Assembly: GCA_965218285.1 (NCBI GenBank)
Contig: OZ244616.1
Location: 5,960,270 to 6,024,269, forward strand
Source: Candidatus Poribacteria bacterium
Lineage (GTDB): Bacteria > Poribacteria > WGA-4E > WGA-3G
Reading direction: 5' to 3'
Length of the DNA: 64,000 nucleotides
Part shown: positions 33,158 through 61,834 of the stretch, one piece after another
How the letters are laid out: every line of letters starts with the position of its first letter
Numbering within the stretch: the stretch's first letter is position 1
Translations under genes and position numbers: made by a program
Notes under the pieces: generated by a model
What the model was told of the DNA's origin: nothing
The model's database searches: none
The model's input: only the letters and a program-made list of their open reading frames with translations

Positions 33158-33658
33158 TCATATCCCCATCCGAAGGGCAACTGCTGCCAACAGAATCAAC
33201 AGCGAAACCACACCCATTAAACTTGAAACAATTGACATTTGTGTTTGGAGTGGTTTGACTTCGGATGGTAGCTCTTCTAATGTTTCGTCTAAGGTTTCAA
33301 TTGCCGTCAACAACTTAGGAGCATACACAAAACTGTGCAAAAAAGTGAGGATAAGTAGCGCGATGAATAGGATCAACTTGATTAGCAACGTTCGCATGAA
33401 GGAAGTGACAATTGGTGAGGAAAAATCTATAGCATTGAAAATATTGCCTATTCCAGTAAAAAATAGAACGAGAACACAACCCCACACAATCGGCTCAAAC
33501 CGTTTGCCTATTTGTGTCAAGAGTTGAATTCGTTTCACAGGTGGTAGGGTTTGTCGAAAATATGGCACAATAACCATTGCTAAAATGAGGTTGCCGCCAA
33601 CCCAAACAACGGCAGCAATCACATGTATCCATAGAATTAATAACCAAATTATGTTCAT
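33158..33658 (-). CDS. Small polytopic membrane protein (CopD/DUF4149-like, uncertain)
   Basis: Four or five hydrophobic spans. The track start MGSPARRV (33682) lies in the IsrB right end; ATG 33658 is preferred. Confidence 0.5.
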   Translation of the reverse strand: MNIIWLLILWIHVIAAVVWVGGNLILAMVIVPYFRQTLPPVKRIQLLTQIGKRFEPIVWGCVLVLFFTGIGNIFNAIDFSSPIVTSFMRTLLIKLILFIALLILTFLHSFVYAPKLLTAIETLDETLEELPSEVKPLQTQMSIVSSLMGVVSLLILLAAVALRMGI

Positions 33659-33685
33659 CACTCTTCGGGCTGGAGACCCCATCCT

Positions 33686-34713
33686 TTAGGTTGGGGAGGA
33701 AAGCCCGCTCCTATAGTTAAAATTCAGACGCGTAAGAACTTTGAAATCCTGTCGTTTCGCGCCTGTGGTGATTCGTTTCCCATCCAAACTGTAGATTGAA
33801 AACAAACCTTTTGCGTTAATACCTGAAAGTCTTGTTAATCCGTGTTTGACATGCTTCACCAAAGTGTTCTTGACCAAGCCTTGTGCTAATAAGGTGCCAC
33901 CATATCGCGAACGAATGCCGTTCTTTTGTGGGTTCTGCCGATGAAGTTCACGTCTTGAAACAGGTATCGGTGCGATGCAGAATATATCTGTGTTGTCGGG
34001 GACATCCACCCCACCGACAGTGTGATATGCCAAACACCAACTATCTACACAGTGTGCATCAAACGTCTCAGCAAGTTTCTTGGAAGACTTCTTGAGCCCA
34101 AGTCTATCTCGAAGTTCTTTCGTCTCCCAACCTTGAAGTGTGAACAATGTCCATCGCTTTTGTATTCACCATAGAACCAAGACTTTCCGACTTCAAGAGG
34201 ACTGAAAGAACTATTCCACTTTTTCGCACGTTTGAGTGTTCGTGCCTTAATGTCCTCAACACATACATACGTGATAGGATACAACTTGGACAACCAATCC
34301 AAGACACGTAGTTTCCAATCCCACCTTGCACGCGTGCCAGCAGGTATTCGTGCGCTATTCGCCAAACGATTCGTCCGGTTCTTTCTATTCGGACAGCTGC
34401 GAGAACGACGGGTTCTCCGAAGGTCTCTGCGTTTCTCTACTTTCTTGCCCACTTTGCTATGGGCGTCTGCTTGAACGTTCAGATAGGTGTGAGACATCGA
34501 CTTCACTGTGAAACCCTCTTTCTTGCTACCGGGGTCTACACCCACAGCAATCTCTTGAGTATCTCTCTTAGAAGGCTCTTTATTGAGACAGATACAATAG
34601 ATACCATTGTCCCAATAAGACGTTGCCTCACCACGTTGGACGAGCTTGCGCGCACGCGCAGCGTGCATAGGCATTAGCACCTCACCATCTTTCGTCTTAA
34701 CAGGAACAAACAT
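33686..34713 (-). pseudogene. isrB: IsrB-like RuvC nickase, copy 2, with a 1-nt deletion frameshift
   Basis: Track ORFs 34045..34713 (MFVPVKTKDGEVLMPMHAARARKLV... GVDPGSK...VCVEDIK) and 33686..34147 (…DAHCVDSW…) overlap in different frames. Copy 1 has gagatacaaaagcgatgg where copy 2 has gaatacaaaagcgatgg, near 34150. Confidence 0.75.
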
Positions 34714-34923
34714 AAGTTTGTGTTCTCCTTTTCAGGGTATATGTTTCCCCATCCAGATCACAGTATCCGAGAGGAATCGGACTTGGGGGGCATCCGAAAC
34801 ATCGTGCTGGCTACCACGCCAAGATACCACGATATTTTACTGTAGTACAACGGTTTAACTTGTGGAGTGAACGCTTGGTATGCGCTTCGCACAAGCCCCA
34901 TGCTTTAGCTTGGGGTTATTGAC
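34714..34923 (-). ncRNA. Candidate omega-RNA scaffold of IsrB copy 2 (boundaries approximate)
   Basis: Almost identical to 5281-5480 (3-4 differences by eye) although the adjacent N-terminal coding regions are only about 55-60% identical at protein level. Confidence 0.5.
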
Positions 34924-44037: not shown

Positions 44038-44133
44038 GTTACTTTGAAAAGTGTAAGGGTGGGTCTCTGTACCCGCCCATTCGCCCTATACCAACCGTCG
44101 CTTCCTTCCTTTTACTTAATTCTTATACCAAAA

Positions 44134-46557
44134 ATGAAACCTGAAGAGAAAGCAAGACAAAACATAGATAGCATGCTGGAAGCGTCTGGATGGCAGATTC
44201 AAAATTATAAAGAACGTAATACAGACGCAGCGTTCGGTGTCGCAGTCCGTGAATACCCGTTGAAATACGATCAAAGTGCAGATTATCTCCTCTTTATCAG
44301 TGGGGTTGCGGTAGGTGTTATTGAAGCCAAAAAAGAAGGTAGAACACCCAGCGGTCCACTCCAACAGGCAGAACGGTATCGAGCAAGTTTGCCAGATGAC
44401 TTGCCAAACCTCCCCAGATTTCCGTTTGCCTACGCATCAACAGGGGTTGAGACATATTTTAGGGATATTCGGGATCCTGATTCTCGTTCCCGACAAGTCT
44501 TTACATTTCATACGCCTGATGCCCTCTGGTATCAAGGTAATGAACTCACTACACTCCGTGAAAATCTCAAGGATGAATTGCCTAAGCATCCCTTAGAAAC
44601 AGATATTCTCTGGAATTGCCAGTTTAAGGCAATCAAAGAGCTAGAGAAATCTTTGGCAGAAGCGCGTCAACGTGCTTTAATCCAGATGGCAACAGGCAGC
44701 GGTAAAACGTTTGCTGCTGTAAGCAGCGTATACCGCCTCATCAAATTTGCTAACGTCAAACGTGTTCTTTTTCTGGTAGACCGCAACAATCTCGGGAGAC
44801 AGGCACTTCGCGAGTTTCAGTCTTACAAGACTCCCGATGACAGTAGAAATTTTGCTGAACTCTACAACGTTCAGCACCTCTCTAGCAACATTATTGACGA
44901 AGCAAGTGCTGTCTGTATTACCACTATCCAACGTCTTTACTCAATGCTGACAGGTGAACCCGACTATGAATCGGACGATGAGGAAAGTTCCGCATTTGAA
45001 CAGGAAACAGCAGGTACAACACCTCAAAAAGTTATCTATAACCAAAATATTCCTATTGATACATTTGACCTTATCATTGTTGATGAATGTCACCGCTCTA
45101 TCTACGGCAAATGGCGGCACGTATTAGAATACTTTGACGCGTTCATTGTCGGATTAACCGCAACGCCATATAACCAAACACTCGGTTTTTTTGATCACAA
45201 TCTTGTTTATGAATACCGCCACGAGCAAGCCGTTGAAGACAACGTTAATGTCGGTTATTACGTCTATCGGATTAAAACCGAAATTACAGAAAGCGGCAGC
45301 ACAGTTGCCGAGGGTAGTTATGTTGCAAGACGGGATAGGGTTAGTCGAAGACTTAACTGGGAGGAGTTGGCGGACGATGTTGAATATACAGGAACACAAT
45401 TGGATCGGGAGGTTGTTGCAGAAGATCAGATTCGTACAGTTATTCAGGCTTTCAAAGATAGTCTCTTTACAGAACTCTTTCGCAATAGGCAAACTGTACC
45501 CAAAACACTTATCTTTGCGAAAGATGATTCCCACGCCGAGGATATTGTCCAAATTGTCCGGAATGTATTTGCCAAAGGCGATGATTTCTGCCAAAAGATC
45601 ACCTACAGAAGTGATAAACCTGAGGACCTCATCAGACGATTTCGCACACAATTTAATCCACGAATCGCCGTAAGTGTTGACATGATTTCTACTGGCACCG
45701 ATATAAAGCCGCTTGAGTGTCTGCTCTTTATGCGTGCTGTCCAGTCAAGTGGGTATTTTGAACAGATGATCGGGCGCGGCGTACGGACTATTAATAGAGA
45801 TGATCTGCGCGCCGTCACCAGTGATGCGACTGCAAAAACCCACTTCATTATCGTTGATGCTGTCGGTGTGTGTGAATCTGTCAAAACTGATTCACAACCA
45901 CGTTCAGGTGAACCATCTGTGACTGAGCCAAACGGACCACGAGAAAGAGACCCCAACCAACTACTTGATGATGTAAGCGTAGACCGGGTTATTCAGACTG
46001 GATTTGATCCTCGAAGTTTCACGCAGGTGACTACAGTTATTCACGACTTTAAACGGTTTATTAATGAACACATAGATGAATTAGCAGCGTTACAAATATT
46101 GTGTCAACGGTCGGGGGCGCAAGGCACGCTGACTGAAGACAACTTAAAGGAGTTGGAGCATGCTTTACAACAGCATTCAAACAGTCTAAGTCGCGAGTCA
46201 TTATGGTTTGCTTACGAAAGGGTATTCCCAACAAAAGTTCTCGGAAATACGGAACAGCGTACAGACATCATATCCCTGGTCCGATTCGCTATGAGGTATA
46301 ATCTATATCTGGAACCTTTTAACGCAACCGTCAAAAGACGATATGAAGAATGGATAACCGACAAAGACTTCACACCGGAACAACGTGAATGGCTTGAAAT
46401 GATACGTGACCATATTGCGACTTCGCTTGACATTCGGATGGATGATTTTGGACTTACTCCCTTCGCGGCACAGGGAGGCATTGCGAGAGTTTTTCATCTT
46501 TTTGGAGATGAGTTAGACGATATACTAACGGATCTCACAGACAAATTGGTTTCTTAA
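44134..46557 (+). CDS. hsdR: Type I restriction enzyme R subunit (EcoEI-like C-terminus)
   Basis: N-terminal nuclease motif ADYLLF...GVIEAKK, helicase motifs MATGSGKT / DECHRS / QMIGRGVR, and an EcoEI_R_C-like tail (FTPEQREWLEMIRDHIA). The track start 44044 is likely too early. Confidence 0.9.
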   Translation: MKPEEKARQNIDSMLEASGWQIQNYKERNTDAAFGVAVREYPLKYDQSADYLLFISGVAVGVIEAKKEGRTPSGPLQQAERYRASLPDDLPNLPRFPFAYASTGVETYFRDIRDPDSRSRQVFTFHTPDALWYQGNELTTLRENLKDELPKHPLETDILWNCQFKAIKELEKSLAEARQRALIQMATGSGKTFAAVSSVYRLIKFANVKRVLFLVDRNNLGRQALREFQSYKTPDDSRNFAELYNVQHLSSNIIDEASAVCITTIQRLYSMLTGEPDYESDDEESSAFEQETAGTTPQKVIYNQNIPIDTFDLIIVDECHRSIYGKWRHVLEYFDAFIVGLTATPYNQTLGFFDHNLVYEYRHEQAVEDNVNVGYYVYRIKTEITESGSTVAEGSYVARRDRVSRRLNWEELADDVEYTGTQLDREVVAEDQIRTVIQAFKDSLFTELFRNRQTVPKTLIFAKDDSHAEDIVQIVRNVFAKGDDFCQKITYRSDKPEDLIRRFRTQFNPRIAVSVDMISTGTDIKPLECLLFMRAVQSSGYFEQMIGRGVRTINRDDLRAVTSDATAKTHFIIVDAVGVCESVKTDSQPRSGEPSVTEPNGPRERDPNQLLDDVSVDRVIQTGFDPRSFTQVTTVIHDFKRFINEHIDELAALQILCQRSGAQGTLTEDNLKELEHALQQHSNSLSRESLWFAYERVFPTKVLGNTEQRTDIISLVRFAMRYNLYLEPFNATVKRRYEEWITDKDFTPEQREWLEMIRDHIATSLDIRMDDFGLTPFAAQGGIARVFHLFGDELDDILTDLTDKLVS

Positions 46558-46698: not shown

Positions 46699-49569
46699 AT
46701 GCCAGACCCAAAAGATGTTTTTGATAACCCTTTAGAGTATATGGATTTCCTACAGTCTACTGATTTTGAGAGACAGCAATTTGACTGGAAAGAAGTTAGA
46801 ACTGATAACAAGAGTCAAATAGACTCCCTTAAAGACAAAGTCAAAAGGTGTATATCTGCTTTCGCGAATAGTAGTAGAGCAGGTGGACTCTTGGTACTTG
46901 GTATCGCTGATGATGGAACCATTAAAGGCACACAGCATGTTGATGAACAGACAATTAACAACATACTGCAAGTCATACAAAATTTACGTAACCACGCAAC
47001 ACAAGTGCAAGACGTGGAATTACCTAATTCGGATGGAAAACGAATACATCTACTTTATACCCCGTGGACATCAAATGCCATTTGTGAAACAGTAGGTAAT
47101 TTTCATGAGGCATGGAAAAGAGTTGGGGCACAATGTCTTGCACTAACTGAACAAGATAGAGACCAGCTTAAACGGGAAAAAAAGATAGTTGATTTTGAAG
47201 TTTCCTATTGCTGTCCTTATGATCCCGATGAACTTGATAAAAAGGTAGTTGAAGAGTTTAAAAAGGTTTACCTTGAAGACAAAGACGCGCAGTACGATTA
47301 TACAACTGAAGAGGTTTTGTACAATATAGGCGCGCTAATGAAAGAGAATGACAAATACGCGTTTACCAATGCAGGTTTTCTATTTTTTGCCTCAAATCCC
47401 CGTAGGCTTTTTGCAAGTGCGTACGTAAGAGTTCTACGTTTTGAGGTAAACGTTGAGGAGTCCCGTACCCGTGGCGTGACAACTTTTGATAAACGTTTTG
47501 ATGGACCTCTCCCCAACATGATCCGTAAACTACAAACCTTTTTCAAAGATTCCGCTCTTTTTAGAACTATCATAAGACGTAGTTCTCACGGAGGATTCAT
47601 GGAAGATCCTGAATATCCGCTCTTTGTCGTGGACGAAGCACTCATAAACGCCGCAATCCATAGGGACTACGGTGCCACTACAGCGATTCACTGCATTGCG
47701 TATCAGAATGGATTGGTAGTAGAAAATCCAGGGGGGATCCCGCAAGCAGTCCCACAGCATTTTAACCTTGGGGACACGTTCCTAGATTCTGTGCCTCGAA
47801 ATTCAAGAATTGTTGATTGGATGTGTCTCATGAAAGATGAGCGAGAGAAACCTTTAGTACGTGCTTTGAGGGAAGGAACAGAAAAAATGCGTCAAGAGAT
47901 GCATAAAATGGGACTACCACCTCCATCTTATGAAACGACTTTTACGAAAACTTCTGTGACACTTTATAATCTCCTTGAAGAAAGACTTGAACCTCATATA
48001 CATACAAAAAGTACACGAAACAATGAACCTTCAACATCTTCTGCCCTTGACGATATGGGAAAGTCGTCGAGTTTCATAGGATGGAGTCCTGCCCAAACTG
48101 GAGATAGCAAGAACAAGGTTAACAATGGTTTATCTGATTTGCCAAATGGTTGGGAATGGACAACGCTCCAAGAGGCTTGTTCAACACCACAATACGGATG
48201 GACAACAAAAGCAACTGCAGAGGGAACACTTCGTCTGCTCAGGACTACCGATATTACTGATGGAAACGTTGATTGGGAAACAGTACCATTCTGCACAGAA
48301 GAACCACCAGATAAAGAAAAATATCTGTTAAAAACAGGAGATATTGTTATTTCGCGAGCAGGTTCTGTTGGTTACAGTTATCTGGTTAAAAGTCCGCAAA
48401 ATGCGGTTTTTGCTTCGTACCTGATTCGTTTCAAACCGTTATCAATGATTGACGAGAACTATCTTAGATTTTTCTTGAAAAGTCCAGATTATTGGAAAAT
48501 CATTTCAAAAGAAAAAGCAGGGATTGCTCTTGTGAACGTTAACGCTACAAAACTCAAGCGAATTGAAATCCCACTTCCGCCGCTGGCAGAACAACACCGT
48601 ATCGTAGCCAAGTTAGAGGTGCTATTTACACAGTTAGACGCAGCAGTTGATAATCTAAAAAAAGCACAAACGCAGTTGCAACGGTATCGTCAATCACTCC
48701 TCAAATCTGCTTTTGAAGGGGAGTTGACAAAGGAATGGCGGGAAGGGTATTCGGGTGAACTGGAGTCGATGTCGGTTTCGGAAGTTTCTACTATGGGCAG
48801 TTTACCTGATCTGCCTGATGGTTGGGTGTGGACAAAGATTAAGGATATTGCGGAATTTATCCGTGGCGTATCCTATCGAAAAGATCAGTCCTCTAAAACC
48901 CCAAAAGATAACTATGTTCCTATATTGCGAGCAAACAATATCAACGCGCAACTGAATTATGAAGACCTTGTTTATGTTCAGCGTGAAAGGATTAAAGATG
49001 AGCAATTTGTCAAGGCATTAGACATTATCATCGCGATGTCAAGTGGTAGTAAACACCTCGTCGGCAAAGCTGCCCAAGCATATCAGGATTTTGAAGGTGG
49101 TTTTGGGACATTTTGTGGATTGGTTAGAGTTTCTGAAGAAGTTAATCAAAAATTCATTGGTTTATTTTTTCAAAGTCCCGGTTATAGAAACGAGATATCC
49201 CGTCTCTCTATTGGGATAAACATCAATAACCTTCGGAGAGAAAACATAGAGGAAATGCTTATACCCGTTCCACCGCTTGCCGAACAGGAACAGATTGTCT
49301 CTGAACTTAAGCGGCACCTTTCAGTCGCTGATGAAATTGAAGCAACTATCGGGGCAGAGTTGACACGTGCCGAACGTTTGCGGCAGTCTATCCTCAAGGA
49401 TGCGTTTTCTGGTAAATTTGTGCCGCAAGACCCGAAAGATGAACCGGCAAGTGTCCTATTAGAGAAAATCCGAGAAGAGAAAGAAGATCGGCAACCGCAG
49501 CGAAAAAAGACTAAGACTAAAGTGAAAAGGACATCTTCGGCACAGCAATTGTCCCTCCCGCTTGACTGA
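46699..49569 (+). CDS. hsdS: Fusion protein: AlbA_2 (Schlafen-like) plus HATPase_c_4-like N-terminal half joined to a complete two-TRD type I specificity subunit
   Basis: aa 1-~450: FERQQFDWKE...AFANSSRAGGLLVLGIADDGTIKG (AlbA_2-like) and EALINAAIHRDYG...VENPGGIP (HATPase_c_4-like). aa ~478-956: LPNGWEWTTL..., LPPLAEQHRIVAKLE..., LPDGWVWTKIKD..., VPPLAEQEQIVSELK... (HsdS TRD1-CR1-TRD2-CR2). Confidence 0.8.
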   Translation: MPDPKDVFDNPLEYMDFLQSTDFERQQFDWKEVRTDNKSQIDSLKDKVKRCISAFANSSRAGGLLVLGIADDGTIKGTQHVDEQTINNILQVIQNLRNHATQVQDVELPNSDGKRIHLLYTPWTSNAICETVGNFHEAWKRVGAQCLALTEQDRDQLKREKKIVDFEVSYCCPYDPDELDKKVVEEFKKVYLEDKDAQYDYTTEEVLYNIGALMKENDKYAFTNAGFLFFASNPRRLFASAYVRVLRFEVNVEESRTRGVTTFDKRFDGPLPNMIRKLQTFFKDSALFRTIIRRSSHGGFMEDPEYPLFVVDEALINAAIHRDYGATTAIHCIAYQNGLVVENPGGIPQAVPQHFNLGDTFLDSVPRNSRIVDWMCLMKDEREKPLVRALREGTEKMRQEMHKMGLPPPSYETTFTKTSVTLYNLLEERLEPHIHTKSTRNNEPSTSSALDDMGKSSSFIGWSPAQTGDSKNKVNNGLSDLPNGWEWTTLQEACSTPQYGWTTKATAEGTLRLLRTTDITDGNVDWETVPFCTEEPPDKEKYLLKTGDIVISRAGSVGYSYLVKSPQNAVFASYLIRFKPLSMIDENYLRFFLKSPDYWKIISKEKAGIALVNVNATKLKRIEIPLPPLAEQHRIVAKLEVLFTQLDAAVDNLKKAQTQLQRYRQSLLKSAFEGELTKEWREGYSGELESMSVSEVSTMGSLPDLPDGWVWTKIKDIAEFIRGVSYRKDQSSKTPKDNYVPILRANNINAQLNYEDLVYVQRERIKDEQFVKALDIIIAMSSGSKHLVGKAAQAYQDFEGGFGTFCGLVRVSEEVNQKFIGLFFQSPGYRNEISRLSIGININNLRRENIEEMLIPVPPLAEQEQIVSELKRHLSVADEIEATIGAELTRAERLRQSILKDAFSGKFVPQDPKDEPASVLLEKIREEKEDRQPQRKKTKTKVKRTSSAQQLSLPLD

Positions 49570-49696: not shown

Positions 49697-50002
49697 ATGA
49701 CGCTTATCGTTTCGCTTGAGACTTCGGATAGTGCGGATGGAGATGAAGAAACACGAGAAACCGATCCACTCCTTGCACTTGCAGGAACGTTGGATTTAGA
49801 TGTCACAGAAATAAAGAAACGCCTCAAGAATGCCGTCCGTCTAAAGACACGCGTAGTTAAAGGACCTTATGAAGACCACCCGGATCCGCTCATCGCATTG
49901 CTAGGAACGTTGGAATGTGATGTCACAGACATCGGTGAACGCCACGATGACTATATTGGCGACGCGTTATTAGCAGAATTATGGGGAGACGAGGAGGAAT
50001 GA
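49697..50002 (+). CDS. Small highly acidic protein with an internal repeat (antitoxin-like tail)
   Basis: DPLLALAGTLDLDVTEI and DPLIALLGTLECDVTDIGERHDDYIG repeats. Asp/Glu-rich. No family assigned. Confidence 0.5.
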   Translation: MTLIVSLETSDSADGDEETRETDPLLALAGTLDLDVTEIKKRLKNAVRLKTRVVKGPYEDHPDPLIALLGTLECDVTDIGERHDDYIGDALLAELWGDEEE

Positions 50003-50036
50003 GGAACTCATTTCACACTCGTATAGGTGACACATT

Positions 50037-50450
50037 ATGGAAACCGGACAAAAGGAACATGATCTCACTTTACCGCCAGCAGATAAAGTGCTGTTTCGGA
50101 AACAGGTGCAACGCGAATTAGACGAAATCCGACAGGAAGCTGAGGAGGCTTATGCCTTGGATAACGAGATTGACCCTGTCCCAGATTCGGCTTATCATGA
50201 TGCGCTCGTTTTGTTAGAGATGCTTTGTAATTACAAGCTGCCCATGCCAGATTTTAGTTGGGCAGAAGATGGCAGTCTTAGTATCGGATGGTATCCGGAT
50301 GAAGGCATGGTAACAATGGGGATATATGGAGACGATCTTGTCATCTATAATGCTTTCTTTGAGGAAAGACGTCAATTTGAAGGAATCTGCGAATTATCAG
50401 ATACACCTGTGTTATCAGGTGTTCTCACAACATTGACAAATATCCTCTAA
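50037..50450 (+). CDS. Hypothetical protein, paralog A
   Basis: 137 aa. The first ~55 aa are nearly identical to paralog B (50737..51150) and the remainder is about 65% identical. No family recognised. Confidence 0.55.
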   Translation: METGQKEHDLTLPPADKVLFRKQVQRELDEIRQEAEEAYALDNEIDPVPDSAYHDALVLLEMLCNYKLPMPDFSWAEDGSLSIGWYPDEGMVTMGIYGDDLVIYNAFFEERRQFEGICELSDTPVLSGVLTTLTNIL

Positions 50451-50584
50451 TACCCAATTAACGGGATTTGTAGCGCGAGGTCCCCGTGCCTCGCAATGCT
50501 AACCGCTATTAGAAGTCTTTTGATATAGTACACCGTTGTGAGGCACAGGAACCTCACACTACAAATCGGGGTAATTTGATATTA
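50451..50584. mobile_element. IS630-derived MITE (family C, long palindromic variant)
   Basis: taatacccaattaacgggatttgtagcgcgaggtccccgtgcctcgcaatgc ... gtgaggcacaggaacctcacactacaaatcggggtaatttgatatta. Confidence 0.7.
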
Positions 50585-50585
50585 T

Positions 50586-50720
50586 AACATGAGTTTGATA
50601 AAAACAAGATGTCGGGCTTCTTGTAGGGGCGAGGTCTTCTCGCCCGTAGGGGTTAGGTTACCTAACCCCTATGAAAATGTCCATTTATGTTTAGAATTTG
50701 CTATATATCAAACTCACGTT
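50586..50720. mobile_element. 135-bp MITE (family F)
   Basis: Termini aacatgagtttgata / tatcaaactcacgtt. Internal hairpins ggcgag..ctcgcc and ggggttaggttacctaacccc. Second copy at 54708-54840. Confidence 0.7.
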
Positions 50721-50736
50721 AGTATAGGTGAACATT

Positions 50737-51150
50737 ATGGAAACCGGACAAAAAGAACATGATCTCCCTTTACCGCCAGCAGATAAAGTGCTGTTTCGGA
50801 AACAGGTGCAGCGCGAATTAGACGAAATCCGCCAAGAAGCTGAGGAAGCCTATGTCTTGGATAACGAAATTGACCCTGTCCCAGATTCGGCGTATGATGA
50901 AGCCTATTCCTTATTAGAGATACTTTTTGATAACAATATACCTATGCCAGATTTCGGTTGGGCAGAGGATGGGAGTCTTGGGTTAGAATGGCGACCAGAG
51001 AAAGGAATCGCTACTATAGGGATATATGGAGACAATCTCGTTATATACGGTGCATTCTTTGAAGAGAACCGTCAAGTTGAGGGAATTTGCACACTATCTG
51101 ATACCGCAATGTTGTCGGGTTTTCTTGCAACGTTATTAAACCTCCTTTAA
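50737..51150 (+). CDS. Hypothetical protein, paralog B
   Basis: METGQKEHDLPLPPADKVLFRKQVQRELDEIRQEAEEAY... Tandem paralog of 50037..50450. Confidence 0.55.
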   Translation: METGQKEHDLPLPPADKVLFRKQVQRELDEIRQEAEEAYVLDNEIDPVPDSAYDEAYSLLEILFDNNIPMPDFGWAEDGSLGLEWRPEKGIATIGIYGDNLVIYGAFFEENRQVEGICTLSDTAMLSGFLATLLNLL

Positions 51151-51163
51151 ATAAGGGTATGAT

Positions 51164-51570
51164 GTCAATAACCCCAAGCTAAAGCATGGGGCTTGTGCGA
51201 AGCGCATGCCAAGCGTCCACTCCACAAGTTAAACGGTTGATTAGACGATATATCGTGGGTCTTGTCGTGGCAGACAAAAAGATGTTTCGGATGCTCCCCA
51301 AGTCTGATTCCTCTCTGATCCCATGATGTCGATGGGGAAACATATACCGCGAGAGCGTGGGCTTACAGCCATTATTTCTGGTAAAGACATCGTGTCAGGT
51401 CAAGTAAGCGAGTAGTGACAGTCTCACTGAACGAAGCAGCACAACTGAATCCAGACTCCCAGTGTGCAGGTGGAGATAAAACAGCACTCCCCTTTTAGGG
51501 ACAAACTAAAAATTAGGAGGCGGGCTTTCCTCCCCTGCCTAAAGGCGAGGGGTTTCCAGCCCGAAGATTT
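51164..51570 (+). mobile_element. Protein-less derivative of the IsrB element (omega-RNA-like left part plus right-end hairpin)
   Basis: The first ~140 nt align with the 5' regions of copies 1 and 2 (gtcaataaccccaagctaaagcatggggcttgtgcgaagcgcat...). The last ~50 nt match the right end (ggcgggctttcctcccc...ccagcccgaaga). It has no isrB ORF and is followed by TGATGA like the other copies. Confidence 0.6.
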
Positions 51571-51572
51571 TG

Positions 51573-51968
51573 ATGAATGTCTCACCAGGTGAGAAACTCA
51601 CCCGTTTTATTCGTTATAGCAATCAGTTTTCCCATGTTAAGGGGGAGGTAAGATACAGAGCGTTTATTCCACCTAAAAATAGTATAAATCTGTCTGTGTT
51701 CCGTATATCATTACCTCCAGAACTCTCAAACAACGCAGTATGGAAGATTGGACTTGACTATGTCGAACGAGAAGGAATACCAATAAAGGCACGCGCCGAT
51801 CTATTTGTGAGTGATGTTGCTGCTAATAACCTTGAAGTCATTTCTGACGAGCCACCTCCGAGGCATGCGAATATCACACCGTTTCCTGCAGACAACAAAG
51901 CGCGGCAAAGTATAGCCAGAAAACTTGCTCATGCCAGTAAATTAGTTGTTATACCAGAAAAAACCTGA
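51573..51968 (+). CDS. Hypothetical protein
   Basis: 131-aa ORF starting at the ATG of the TGATGA that abuts the element. No family recognised. Overlaps the track extension of hsdM. Confidence 0.45.
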   Translation: MNVSPGEKLTRFIRYSNQFSHVKGEVRYRAFIPPKNSINLSVFRISLPPELSNNAVWKIGLDYVEREGIPIKARADLFVSDVAANNLEVISDEPPPRHANITPFPADNKARQSIARKLAHASKLVVIPEKT

Positions 51969-51996
51969 TTCCAGTCAAAACAAATTAAGGGTATAC

Positions 51997-53463
51997 ATGT
52001 CCAACGAATCAGCAACAATCGTTCAAAAACTATGGAATTTCTGCAATGTGCTCCGAGATGATGGAGTCAGTTACGGAGATTACGTCGAACAACTCACGTA
52101 TCTACTTTTTCTCAAACTCGCTGACGAACAGAGCAAACTATCCTCTAACACATCATCTAATTTACCTTCTGGTTTGGATTGGGAAAGTCTGCTCAAAGAA
52201 AGCGGTGCTGCGTTAGAGGATCAATATGTCAGAATCCTTCGAGAATTGAGCAATGAGAAAGGTTTGCTTGGTGTGATCTTCAGAAAATCGCAAAATCGCA
52301 TTCAGACACCTGCCCACCTTCAACGCCTCATCAAGCTCATTGATGCCGAGATTTGGAGCGAGATGACAGATGATGTCAAAGGCACAATTTACGAAGGACT
52401 TTTGCAGAAAAACGCTGAAGATACAAAAAGTGGTGCAGGACAGTACTTCACACCCCGTTCACTTATCAAAGCAATTGTTACCGTGATGCAACCTAAACCG
52501 ATGAAGACGATTTGTGATCCAGCATGCGGAACAGGAGGATTTTTCCTTGCTGCGTACGAGTACATATCTGAACAGTACCGCACAACATTAACTCGTAAAC
52601 AGAAGAAGTTTCTCAAATTTGAGACCTTTGCTGGAACAGACATCGTTGATAATGTTGTACGTCTCTGTGTAATGAATCTATACCTGCACAGCATTGGTGG
52701 CACAGAGAGTCCAATTACAACTGATGATAGTCTAAGCAAGGATCCGGGCAAACGCCACGATATGGTGCTGACGAATCCACCATTCGGTAACAAGAGTAGT
52801 GTTACAATCACTGCCGATGGTGAAAAACGGAGTAAGGCATCACTCACGTATGAACGCGATGATTTTTGGACGACGACTTCAAATAAACAGTTCAACTTCC
52901 TGCAACACATTAAAACGATTTTGAAGGAAGATGGTCGCGCTGCCGTGGTACTCCCAGACAATGTCCTATTTGAAAGAGGAGCAGGTGAAACGATTCGCAG
53001 GCAACTGCTTAAACTTTTTGATGTTCATACATTGTTACGATTGCCAACTGGTATCTTCTATGCACAAGGTGTGAAGGCAAACGTACTCTTTTTTGACAAA
53101 CGTCCTGCGCGTGAGGAACCGTGGACACAGAAACTTTGGATATATGACCTGCGGACGAACAAACGTTTTACCCTCAAGACAAATCCCTTAGGCGATACCG
53201 ACCTACAGGATTTTATTAAAGTCTACAATCCAAAGAACCGTCACGAACGGACTGAAACAGAATGTTTCCACGCCTTCAGTTACGAGGAACTTATCCAACG
53301 TGAACATGCCAACCTTGACATCTTTTGGCTAAAAGAGGATTCACTTGAAGATGCAGCGGATCTTCCAAAACCAAATATATTAGCTGAGGAAATCACACAG
53401 AATTTACAGACTGCCTTGGAACAGTTTCAGAACATCCAAGCAGAATTAGGCGACAGCGACTAA
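51997..53463 (+). CDS. hsdM: Type I restriction-modification N6-adenine DNA methyltransferase
   Basis: HsdM N-terminal motif LWNFCNVLRDDG, AdoMet motif DPACGTGGF, catalytic NPPFG. ATG 51997 preferred over the track start 51946. Confidence 0.9.
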   Translation: MSNESATIVQKLWNFCNVLRDDGVSYGDYVEQLTYLLFLKLADEQSKLSSNTSSNLPSGLDWESLLKESGAALEDQYVRILRELSNEKGLLGVIFRKSQNRIQTPAHLQRLIKLIDAEIWSEMTDDVKGTIYEGLLQKNAEDTKSGAGQYFTPRSLIKAIVTVMQPKPMKTICDPACGTGGFFLAAYEYISEQYRTTLTRKQKKFLKFETFAGTDIVDNVVRLCVMNLYLHSIGGTESPITTDDSLSKDPGKRHDMVLTNPPFGNKSSVTITADGEKRSKASLTYERDDFWTTTSNKQFNFLQHIKTILKEDGRAAVVLPDNVLFERGAGETIRRQLLKLFDVHTLLRLPTGIFYAQGVKANVLFFDKRPAREEPWTQKLWIYDLRTNKRFTLKTNPLGDTDLQDFIKVYNPKNRHERTETECFHAFSYEELIQREHANLDIFWLKEDSLEDAADLPKPNILAEEITQNLQTALEQFQNIQAELGDSD

Positions 53464-58220: not shown

Positions 58221-58363
58221 TTAGGTATAATCCACTGTTTGATCTTTAGCGGTAAAGGTAACGTGAGATATTTTTGAGAAGGTGCTTTTGTTCTCAATTC
58301 AGAAAACCACGTCTATATAATAGCACGAGCTTCAAAATGTTTCAAGGGTAAACTCGCTGTTAC

Positions 58364-58485
58364 CAGGGCTATTTAGTTCTCCGAATATTTAGATTTTCAA
58401 TCTAAGACTTTCCCCTGTCCGAGCGATCTCCGAATCGCGACTTTTCGGCTAAAATGGACAAAAAGTCTAAAACTAAATAACCCTG
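58364..58485. mobile_element. 122-bp MITE (family A) with 9-bp target duplication cgctgttac
   Basis: cagggctatttagtt ... aactaaataaccctg. cgctgttac on both flanks. Confidence 0.8.
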
Positions 58486-61712: not shown

Positions 61713-61834
61713 CAGGGTCATTTAGTTTTCCGAATATTTAGATTTTCAATTTAAGACCCTCCGCTGTCCGAGCGATCTCCGAATCGCCACTTTTCGGATA
61801 AAATGGACAAAAAGCCTAAAACTAAATAACCCTG
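61713..61834. mobile_element. 122-bp MITE (family A) nested in a family C MITE
   Basis: cagggtcatttagtt ... aactaaataaccctg. Flanked by halves of an ataccatattaac-type MITE. Confidence 0.7.

Follow-up and report, generated by a model that had tools for sequence, protein, structure and literature searches.

A 409-nt segment of a Candidatus Poribacteria genome is, with a probability of about 0.8, a non-autonomous and protein-less derivative of an IsrB-type (ISC1) transposon of the IS200/IS605 superfamily: a PATE-like unit made up of an omega-RNA gene and two transposon ends. The segment lies in a stretch of 64,000 nucleotides of contig OZ244616.1 (positions 5,960,270 to 6,024,269 of the forward strand), hereafter the window, whose coordinates are used throughout. 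It is a discrete mobile unit and has moved. A resident IsrB probably makes use of this omega RNA in trans to target the element's own empty site. Two full-length IsrB elements (copies 1 and 2) were also present in the window, and the 409-nt element is referred to as copy 3 in the alignments. The features of the three elements were as follows; ORF denotes an open reading frame, TAM a target-adjacent motif and MITE a miniature inverted-repeat transposable element.

51164..51572, + strand: whole protein-less IsrB-derived mini-element, 409 nt, with boundaries taken from empty-site alleles
51144..51163, + strand: predicted 20-nt guide segment of the omega RNA in the host flank, CCTTTAAATAAGGGTATGAT, proposed by analogy with DtIsrB
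51164..51368, + strand: IsrB-type omega-RNA scaffold of ~205 nt, from covariance model R1, helix pairs and two pseudoknots
51172..51191, + strand: first scaffold hairpin, CCCCAAGCTAAAGCATGGGG, which doubles as the subterminal hairpin of the 5' transposon end
51369..51513, + strand: internal segment of ~145 nt in place of the IsrB ORF, with no IsrB similarity
51514..51572, + strand: other transposon end, ~59 nt, with an imperfect subterminal hairpin (GGGCTTTCCTCCCCTGCCTAAAGGCGAGGGGTTTCCAGCCC) and the terminus ...GAAGATTTTG, from similarity to copies 1 and 2
51573..51576, + strand: target site and TAM, ATGA, whose ATG is the start codon of a 131-aa ORF (51573..51968)
5281..6676, + strand: IsrB element copy 1, between a ylxR-like ORF and infB, its ORF broken by a 122-bp MITE
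33659..34923, - strand: IsrB element copy 2, its ORF broken by a 1-nt deletion near 34160

The boundaries of the element were read from alleles with and without it. ENA metagenome contigs were retrieved through the 137-aa and 131-aa proteins encoded on either side of the element, and the insertion at the window site was polymorphic among these closely related Poribacteria populations. A precise empty site was found in eight contigs (L038, L039, L041, L042, L044, L048, L050 and L052), and six were occupied by an element with 98.5-99.8% identity to that of the window (L043, L045, L046, L047, L049 and L051). The empty site read ...GGGTATGAT|ATGAATG..., or in longer form ...AAATAAGGGTATGAT|ATGAATGTCTC..., its junction was also given as ...aaataagggtatgat|atgaatgtc..., and the gap between the two genes was 13 nt. 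Comparison of empty and occupied alleles revealed no target-site duplication and placed the insertion directly 5' of ATGA (N|ATGA). A preliminary description of the locus had drawn the segment from 51164 to 51576 and treated a terminal TGATGA as its flank. The TGATGA is present, but the empty alleles showed that it consists of the last two bases of the element (TG) followed by the target ATGA, so that the true element is 51164..51572 and not 51164..51576.

The same target was used throughout the family, with ATGA directly 3' of the element in 30/30 distinct insertion sites for which the motif could be placed. ISC transposons follow this rule, having a 5'-GT.. terminus and inserting at N|ATGA without duplication (PMC4810608), and in DtIsrB the TAM is NTGA, with ATGA being cleaved (PMC9581776). 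The element resembles ISC1/IsrB transposons (Kapitonov, Makarova & Koonin 2016, PMC4810608; OMEGA, Altae-Tran 2021) in this rule, in its 5'-GTCA terminus and imperfect subterminal hairpins, and in having the omega RNA at the 5' end with a guide drawn from the flank. It differs from them in that the IsrB ORF is wholly gone and replaced by ~145 nt of unrelated sequence, giving a length of 409 nt compared with ~1265 nt.

Both ends of the element were shared with the two IsrB elements of the window. Exactly three copies of the 22-mer GTCAATAACCCCAAGCTAAAGC were present in the window (5281 +, 34923 -, 51164 +), compared with 0 expected from shuffles. Across 188 nt (BLAST) the 5' end was 85.6-86.2% identical to the two full-length elements; the shared left end of the preliminary description was thus upheld, whereas its ~140 nt was too short for this alignment and for the ~205-nt scaffold. 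Across 54 nt (BLAST) the 3' end shared 87% identity with the corresponding ends of both full-length copies, in agreement with the right-end hairpin proposed earlier, and its fold as DNA reached -13.2 kcal/mol (z = -1.9). Imperfect subterminal hairpins were located at both ends without terminal inverted repeats (5' CCCCAAGCTAAAGCATGGGG, 3' CCCCTGCCTAAAGGCGAGGGG), the 3' one sitting inside a longer GGGCT...AGCCC stem.

No nuclease gene was found in the 409-nt element, as had been stated from the start; the longest internal ORF was 54 aa, and blastx of the element against IsrB proteins returned nothing better than E=4. Neither blastn nor blastx of the internal segment detected similarity to IsrB elements and proteins, which agrees with the unrelated middle reported before, although its length is ~145 nt and not ~190 nt. 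Two ORFs of the element, of 54 aa and 53 aa, were looked up as a route to more copies, and neither had a recorded match. The element is protein-less, as PATE-like elements are. A PATE-like element was one of three possibilities that the preliminary description had offered, and it is supported by the empty sites, the lack of duplication, the N|ATGA target, the hairpins at both ends, a second copy and the presence/absence polymorphism.

PATEs, including the omega-RNA-bearing PATE-like elements of Geobacillus stearothermophilus (Meers et al. 2023, bioRxiv 10.1101/2023.03.14.532601), are likewise protein-less and multi-copy and have both IS200/IS605-type ends. They often encode omega RNAs that are acted on in trans (Meers et al., bioRxiv 10.1101/2023.03.14.532601). 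Their use of TnpA in trans, and of a guide-RNA gene needing a nuclease encoded elsewhere, would apply to the window element as well. What sets the present case apart is an IsrB-type omega RNA (5' scaffold, two pseudoknots) in Poribacteria, together with allele-level empty sites and compensatory evolution; no report of either of the latter two was found in the literature examined.

The omega-RNA scaffold was identified with a covariance model (R1) built from 27 related family copies, and a wider alignment held 43 copies. R1 matched 51164..51377 end to end with 207.6 bits (E~1e-63), and the two full-length copies scored 246.5 bits (copy 1) and 257.3 bits (copy 2); the omega RNAs of both these broken copies score as intact. 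Under permissive settings the Rfam HEARO model (RF02033) gave only a sub-threshold match to 51164-51280 (32.1 bits, E=1.2e-4 in a 1-kb search). At gathering thresholds Rfam returned no match in the window and none for any of the three copies; evidently, the HEARO model does not cover this clade.

Single-sequence minimum free energy folds were uninformative (z of -0.6 for copy 3 and -2.0 for copy 1), so that a comparative analysis was needed. Across the 27 copies the family structure comprised seven helices and a nexus pseudoknot, with 97.6% of cells paired compared with 31-42% in controls in which one strand was slid by 1-3 columns. Double-sided changes were observed in 13 pairs versus 5.6 in shuffles, and 0/500 shuffles reached the observed values. 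The nexus pseudoknot, formed by a hairpin-loop CCCCA and a downstream UGGGG, had five pairs that were 100% paired and included a covarying pair (A-U in 18 copies, U-A in 9); it was retained in the window copy. A loop-loop adaptor pseudoknot (ACCA/UGGU, four pairs, 92.6% paired) covaried between A-U (11) and G-C (9), and it too was retained in copy 3, where it read GCCA/UGGC, i.e., the G-C state. Such an adaptor pseudoknot is characteristic of IsrB omega RNAs (PMC9581776).

The DtIsrB omega RNA (Hirano et al. 2022, PMC9581776; PDB 8dmb) and HEARO (RF02033) have a scaffold beginning GUCAA.. directly after the guide and a guide-adaptor stem, as here; in DtIsrB a 20-nt guide lies directly 5' of a scaffold beginning GUCAAC (PMC9581776). 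The nexus pseudoknot, the loop-loop adaptor pseudoknot and a terminal GNRA-like hairpin are further likenesses to the DtIsrB RNA. The scaffold described here is shorter (~205 nt vs 262 nt), however, and no protein is encoded in cis.

The window scaffold retained 47/48 helix pairs in the 43-copy alignment. Within the first 203 alignment columns, 32 distinguished it from both copy 1 and copy 2, and 14 of the 32 were paired columns. Ten pairs changed state; nine of them remained paired, three through changes on both sides, and the tenth was a gap in the alignment, which may represent a bulge.

Copies of the family outside the window were sought with an exact 26-mer from the 5' end, which matched solely Candidatus Poribacteria assemblies (30 loci, 17 of them in chromosome OZ250160.1). 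This chromosome was ~97-98% identical to the window at the orthologous nusA-infB stretch, the sole orthologous stretch compared. Full-length elements in the related loci were ~1265 nt long, many with intact 342-aa ORFs, and intact 342-aa IsrB ORFs were present in OZ250160.1. The family protein (an intact 342-aa product from a related locus) contained only Pfam RRXRR and no HNH, and its best match among solved structures was IsrB (8dmb, E=8e-34).

A paralogue of the 409-nt unit was found at L006 (~39-454, - strand), with 94% identity across ~416 nt and unrelated flanks on both sides. The two units had an identical start (GTCAAT...) and end (...GAAGATTTTG), and the middle of the window element was 98.5% identical to L006 110-241. 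The same architecture at an unrelated locus indicates that the protein-less form predates the separation of the two copies and that the unit moved after loss of the ORF. A separate, near-identical omega-only family of 334 nt was present in at least six copies at six sites (L006, L011, L017, L018, L029 and L047), and L013 held an internally deleted copy of ~560 nt. When metagenomes were scanned with a general omega pattern, seven loci were recovered; these comprised one fragment and copies that were either full-length or cut off by a contig end, and none was a further copy of the 409-nt type. The 334-nt element of L006, which has a similar flank, was considered as an orthologue of the window site and ruled out by its neighbours lysS and prfB.

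The scaffolds of the two protein-less paralogues (the window copy and L006:240-454) differed at 14 columns (6.8%), and no pair was broken. These differences included two fully compensatory double substitutions, U-A vs C-G and U-A vs A-U. The A-U state of the second was unique among the 43 copies and so was not copied from a known full-length element. Taken at the level of sequence, these changes indicate that selection on the RNA structure continued after the nuclease gene had been lost. The trans-acting guide-RNA locus of the preliminary description thereby gains indirect support: the scaffold and both pseudoknots are intact, and compensatory changes separate the two protein-less copies.

Decay debris, the last of the earlier possibilities, would be a full-length IsrB element that was internally deleted and randomly degraded in place, with no activity left. 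The lack of a nuclease gene and of any ORF longer than 54 aa is in keeping with such a history, the two full-length copies of the window are themselves pseudogenes, and the family includes degraded relatives: a 213-nt remnant (L025), whose omega RNA is truncated (96 bits), and fragments carried by L036 and L024. However, the same architecture, internal segment and junctions at the unrelated L006 locus largely refute decay in place; both ends, all omega helices and both pseudoknots have been preserved, and the pattern of substitutions is compensatory, not random. Decay was therefore rejected and is considered extremely unlikely.

Activity of the PATE-like unit would depend on proteins made elsewhere. 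In the mechanism that we propose, a Y1 TnpA supplied in trans would excise and paste the element as single-stranded DNA via the two similar subterminal hairpins. Read-through co-transcription from the upstream 137-aa gene would yield an omega RNA carrying at its 5' end the 20 nt CCTTTAAATAAGGGTATGAT of the flank, and IsrB from intact full-length elements elsewhere in the genome would load this RNA in trans. The complex would then recognise the empty allele, where the guide 20-mer directly precedes ATGA, through the guide match and the ATGA TAM, and nick it. Through such a nick, recombination could more readily restore the element or spread it (restorative homing). Self-targeting would be avoided, since in the occupied allele GTCA and not ATGA comes after the guide match.

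Several observations weigh against the element being a PATE-like unit whose omega RNA works with a resident IsrB. Both IsrB genes of the 64-kb window are pseudogenes. Y1 TnpA was not found in the window or in 52 loci, although the screen was a crude one for HUH/Y motifs and is a weak negative. The HEARO score of the window scaffold (32.1 bits) did not reach the gathering threshold of 83. The compensatory changes come from two paralogous lineages only, and none of the 43 copies represents a parent full-length lineage with this omega variant. Finally, published demonstrations of restorative homing concern TnpB and IscB rather than the nickase IsrB (PMC13565253; bioRxiv 10.1101/2023.03.14.532601).

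The two full-length copies of the window owe their pseudogene status to different lesions, the MITE in copy 1 and the deletion in copy 2. The MITE occupies 5664..5785 (122 bp) and is flanked by a 9-bp target duplication, GTGGGTGTA, at 5655-5663 and 5786-5794. The deletion in copy 2 splits the IsrB gene into ORFs of 222 aa and 153 aa. No IsrB/IscB gene stands beside the omega RNA of the 409-nt unit within the element, and the nearest in the window, these pseudogenes, lie ~16 kb and ~45 kb off. An orthologue of copy 1 without the MITE was present in L009. The same MITE was observed in the window at 58362..58484 and 61713..61833, and it is high-copy in these genomes, at times in tandem (L009, L017). 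In L001 (4053..4431) a MITE core of 27-31 nt occurred about ten times, with match starts ~36-50 nt apart, which suggests a tandem array.

A further observation concerns the host genes at the target. The target ATG opens an ORF of at least 131 aa at 15/30 insertion sites, compared with ~5% of random ATGA sites by our own estimate, so that the elements sit exactly between ribosome-binding site and start codon far more often than at random. Full-length and 334-nt elements terminate in TAA AGG ATG GGG TCT CCA GCC CGA AGA GTG|ATG (window 6653..6679, and 33656..33682 on the - strand), in which an ATG located 3 nt past the stop codon of IsrB shares the reading frame of the target ATG. Consequently, infB and a 166-aa membrane ORF gain an MGSPARRV leader, which may permit translational coupling and keep the host gene expressed. 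This in-frame ATG near the 3' end is lost in the 409-nt type.

The element is located between the 137-aa ORF and the 131-aa ORF within an hsdR-hsdS-...-hsdM locus of this sponge-symbiont genome. This confirms the position described earlier, with the paralogous small ORFs on one side and the 131-aa ORF that precedes hsdM on the other, inside a type I restriction-modification (R-M) locus with the following genes.

44044..46557: hsdR, type I R-M locus
46699..49569: hsdS, type I R-M locus
51946..53463: hsdM, type I R-M locus

From strain to strain the island varied widely, both in how many small-ORF pairs it contained and in the presence of hsdM, and it was a target of other small elements. In L047 a 334-nt omega-only mini-element (765..1098) was inserted in the same R-M/small-ORF island upstream of a 137-aa ORF. 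In L040 a different protein-less insertion of ~447 nt (2447..2893) lay 13 nt upstream of the IsrB-mini site; its last 159 nt shared 87% identity with the terminal part of a frameshifted tnpB element (L028 1888..3337), and it had no Rfam match. The L040 insertion probably represents a PATE of the TnpB type, which would make it a second, independent strike on the same 13-nt spacer. An IS1595-family transposase adjoins hsdM in the window. The island is thus a hot spot for several small mobile elements.

The small paralogous ORF pairs between hsdS and hsdM (49697..51968; L038-L052; 137/139, 137/131 and 140/138 aa) had no Pfam match, and a UPF0175/DUF3368 pair was present in the islands of some strains. 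The hsdM gene was absent from the sampled empty alleles and present in all occupied alleles. HsdS (46699..49569) was fused to an N-terminal Schlafen/AlbA_2 + HATPase_c_4 region, which matched a PADLOC profile labelled pAgo (PDLC02394, E=5.8e-159, aa 1-437) and in L038 was represented by separate genes of 469 aa and 143 aa.

The preliminary description had considered the placement in a defence locus worth attention, and a domesticated guide-RNA locus would give it a meaning: the host would direct IsrB or a nuclease-dead relative at a target of benefit to the cell, for example to regulate or protect the R-M/small-ORF island. The element does lie in a defence island in the same orientation as the operon, its RNA structure appears to be under selection without a nuclease in cis, and standalone omega RNAs working with IscB were reported (Altae-Tran 2021, as cited in PMC9581776). 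Those loci, as far as that citation describes them, resemble the present one in lacking an adjacent nuclease gene and differ in being associated with IscB rather than of IsrB type. However, the guide 20-mer CCTTTAAATAAGGGTATGAT was unique in the window and matched only the element's own flank, as a selfish homing guide would; the insertion was polymorphic even among contigs from similar samples and was not fixed; and the family adjoins unrelated genes elsewhere (e.g., lysS/prfB in L006). Domestication is therefore regarded as very unlikely. Because the guide matches only its own insertion site and the island is a hot spot for small elements, a meaning of the defence-locus placement is unsupported. 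The R-M position is most simply explained by a permissive, insertion-rich intergenic spacer ending in an ATGA start codon, and it does not argue for a role in defence.

The internal ~145-nt segment was examined as possible cargo, in which case a functional sequence (a small RNA, a regulatory site or an outward promoter) would merely be mobilised by the omega RNA and the ends. Between the window element and L006, 113 nt of the segment (51383..51495; L006 ~118..230) were identical, while the scaffolds of the same paralogues differed at 6.8%; we calculated a probability of about 4e-4 for this under a uniform rate. Functional cargo is one possible cause of the identity, but a recent gene-conversion tract explains it equally well. 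The segment had no stable fold on either strand (z of +0.8 and +1.0), no sigma-70-like promoter on the + strand, and no ORF longer than 30 aa wholly inside it. No homologues turned up in the IsrB, metagenome and viral searches, exact 24-mers having 0 matches in metagenome contigs and 0 in viral contigs, and the 334-nt family lacks the segment yet is more numerous. A cargo carrier is accordingly held to be quite unlikely.

Protein-less IS200/IS605 derivatives (PATEs) are already established, and the element, a 'parasite of a parasite', is known in outline. The present work adds an IsrB-type case in which insertion is proved at the level of alleles, the occurrence of two independent omega-only families within a single lineage, and compensatory evolution while protein-less. 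A more speculative proposal, which we rate as unlikely, is that guide-only mini-elements form a maintained class of hyperparasites, in which an omega RNA under purifying selection would exploit the IsrB of others and convert or disadvantage the empty allele of the hypervariable R-M/small-ORF island in a recombining symbiont population, with the internal segment perhaps as cargo.

There was no indication of a new defence mechanism at this locus. Rather, it illustrates cleanly, in a natural setting, how the components of an RNA-guided transposon separate: the guide-RNA gene and the ends keep moving without the nuclease gene, and the RNA goes on changing within the constraints of its structure. 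The locus lends support to the view that IsrB and its omega RNA are able to function in trans, a modular step from OMEGA toward CRISPR-Cas9 with separately encoded guides. The occupied and empty alleles provide a natural substrate pair for asking whether a nickase like IsrB promotes homing.

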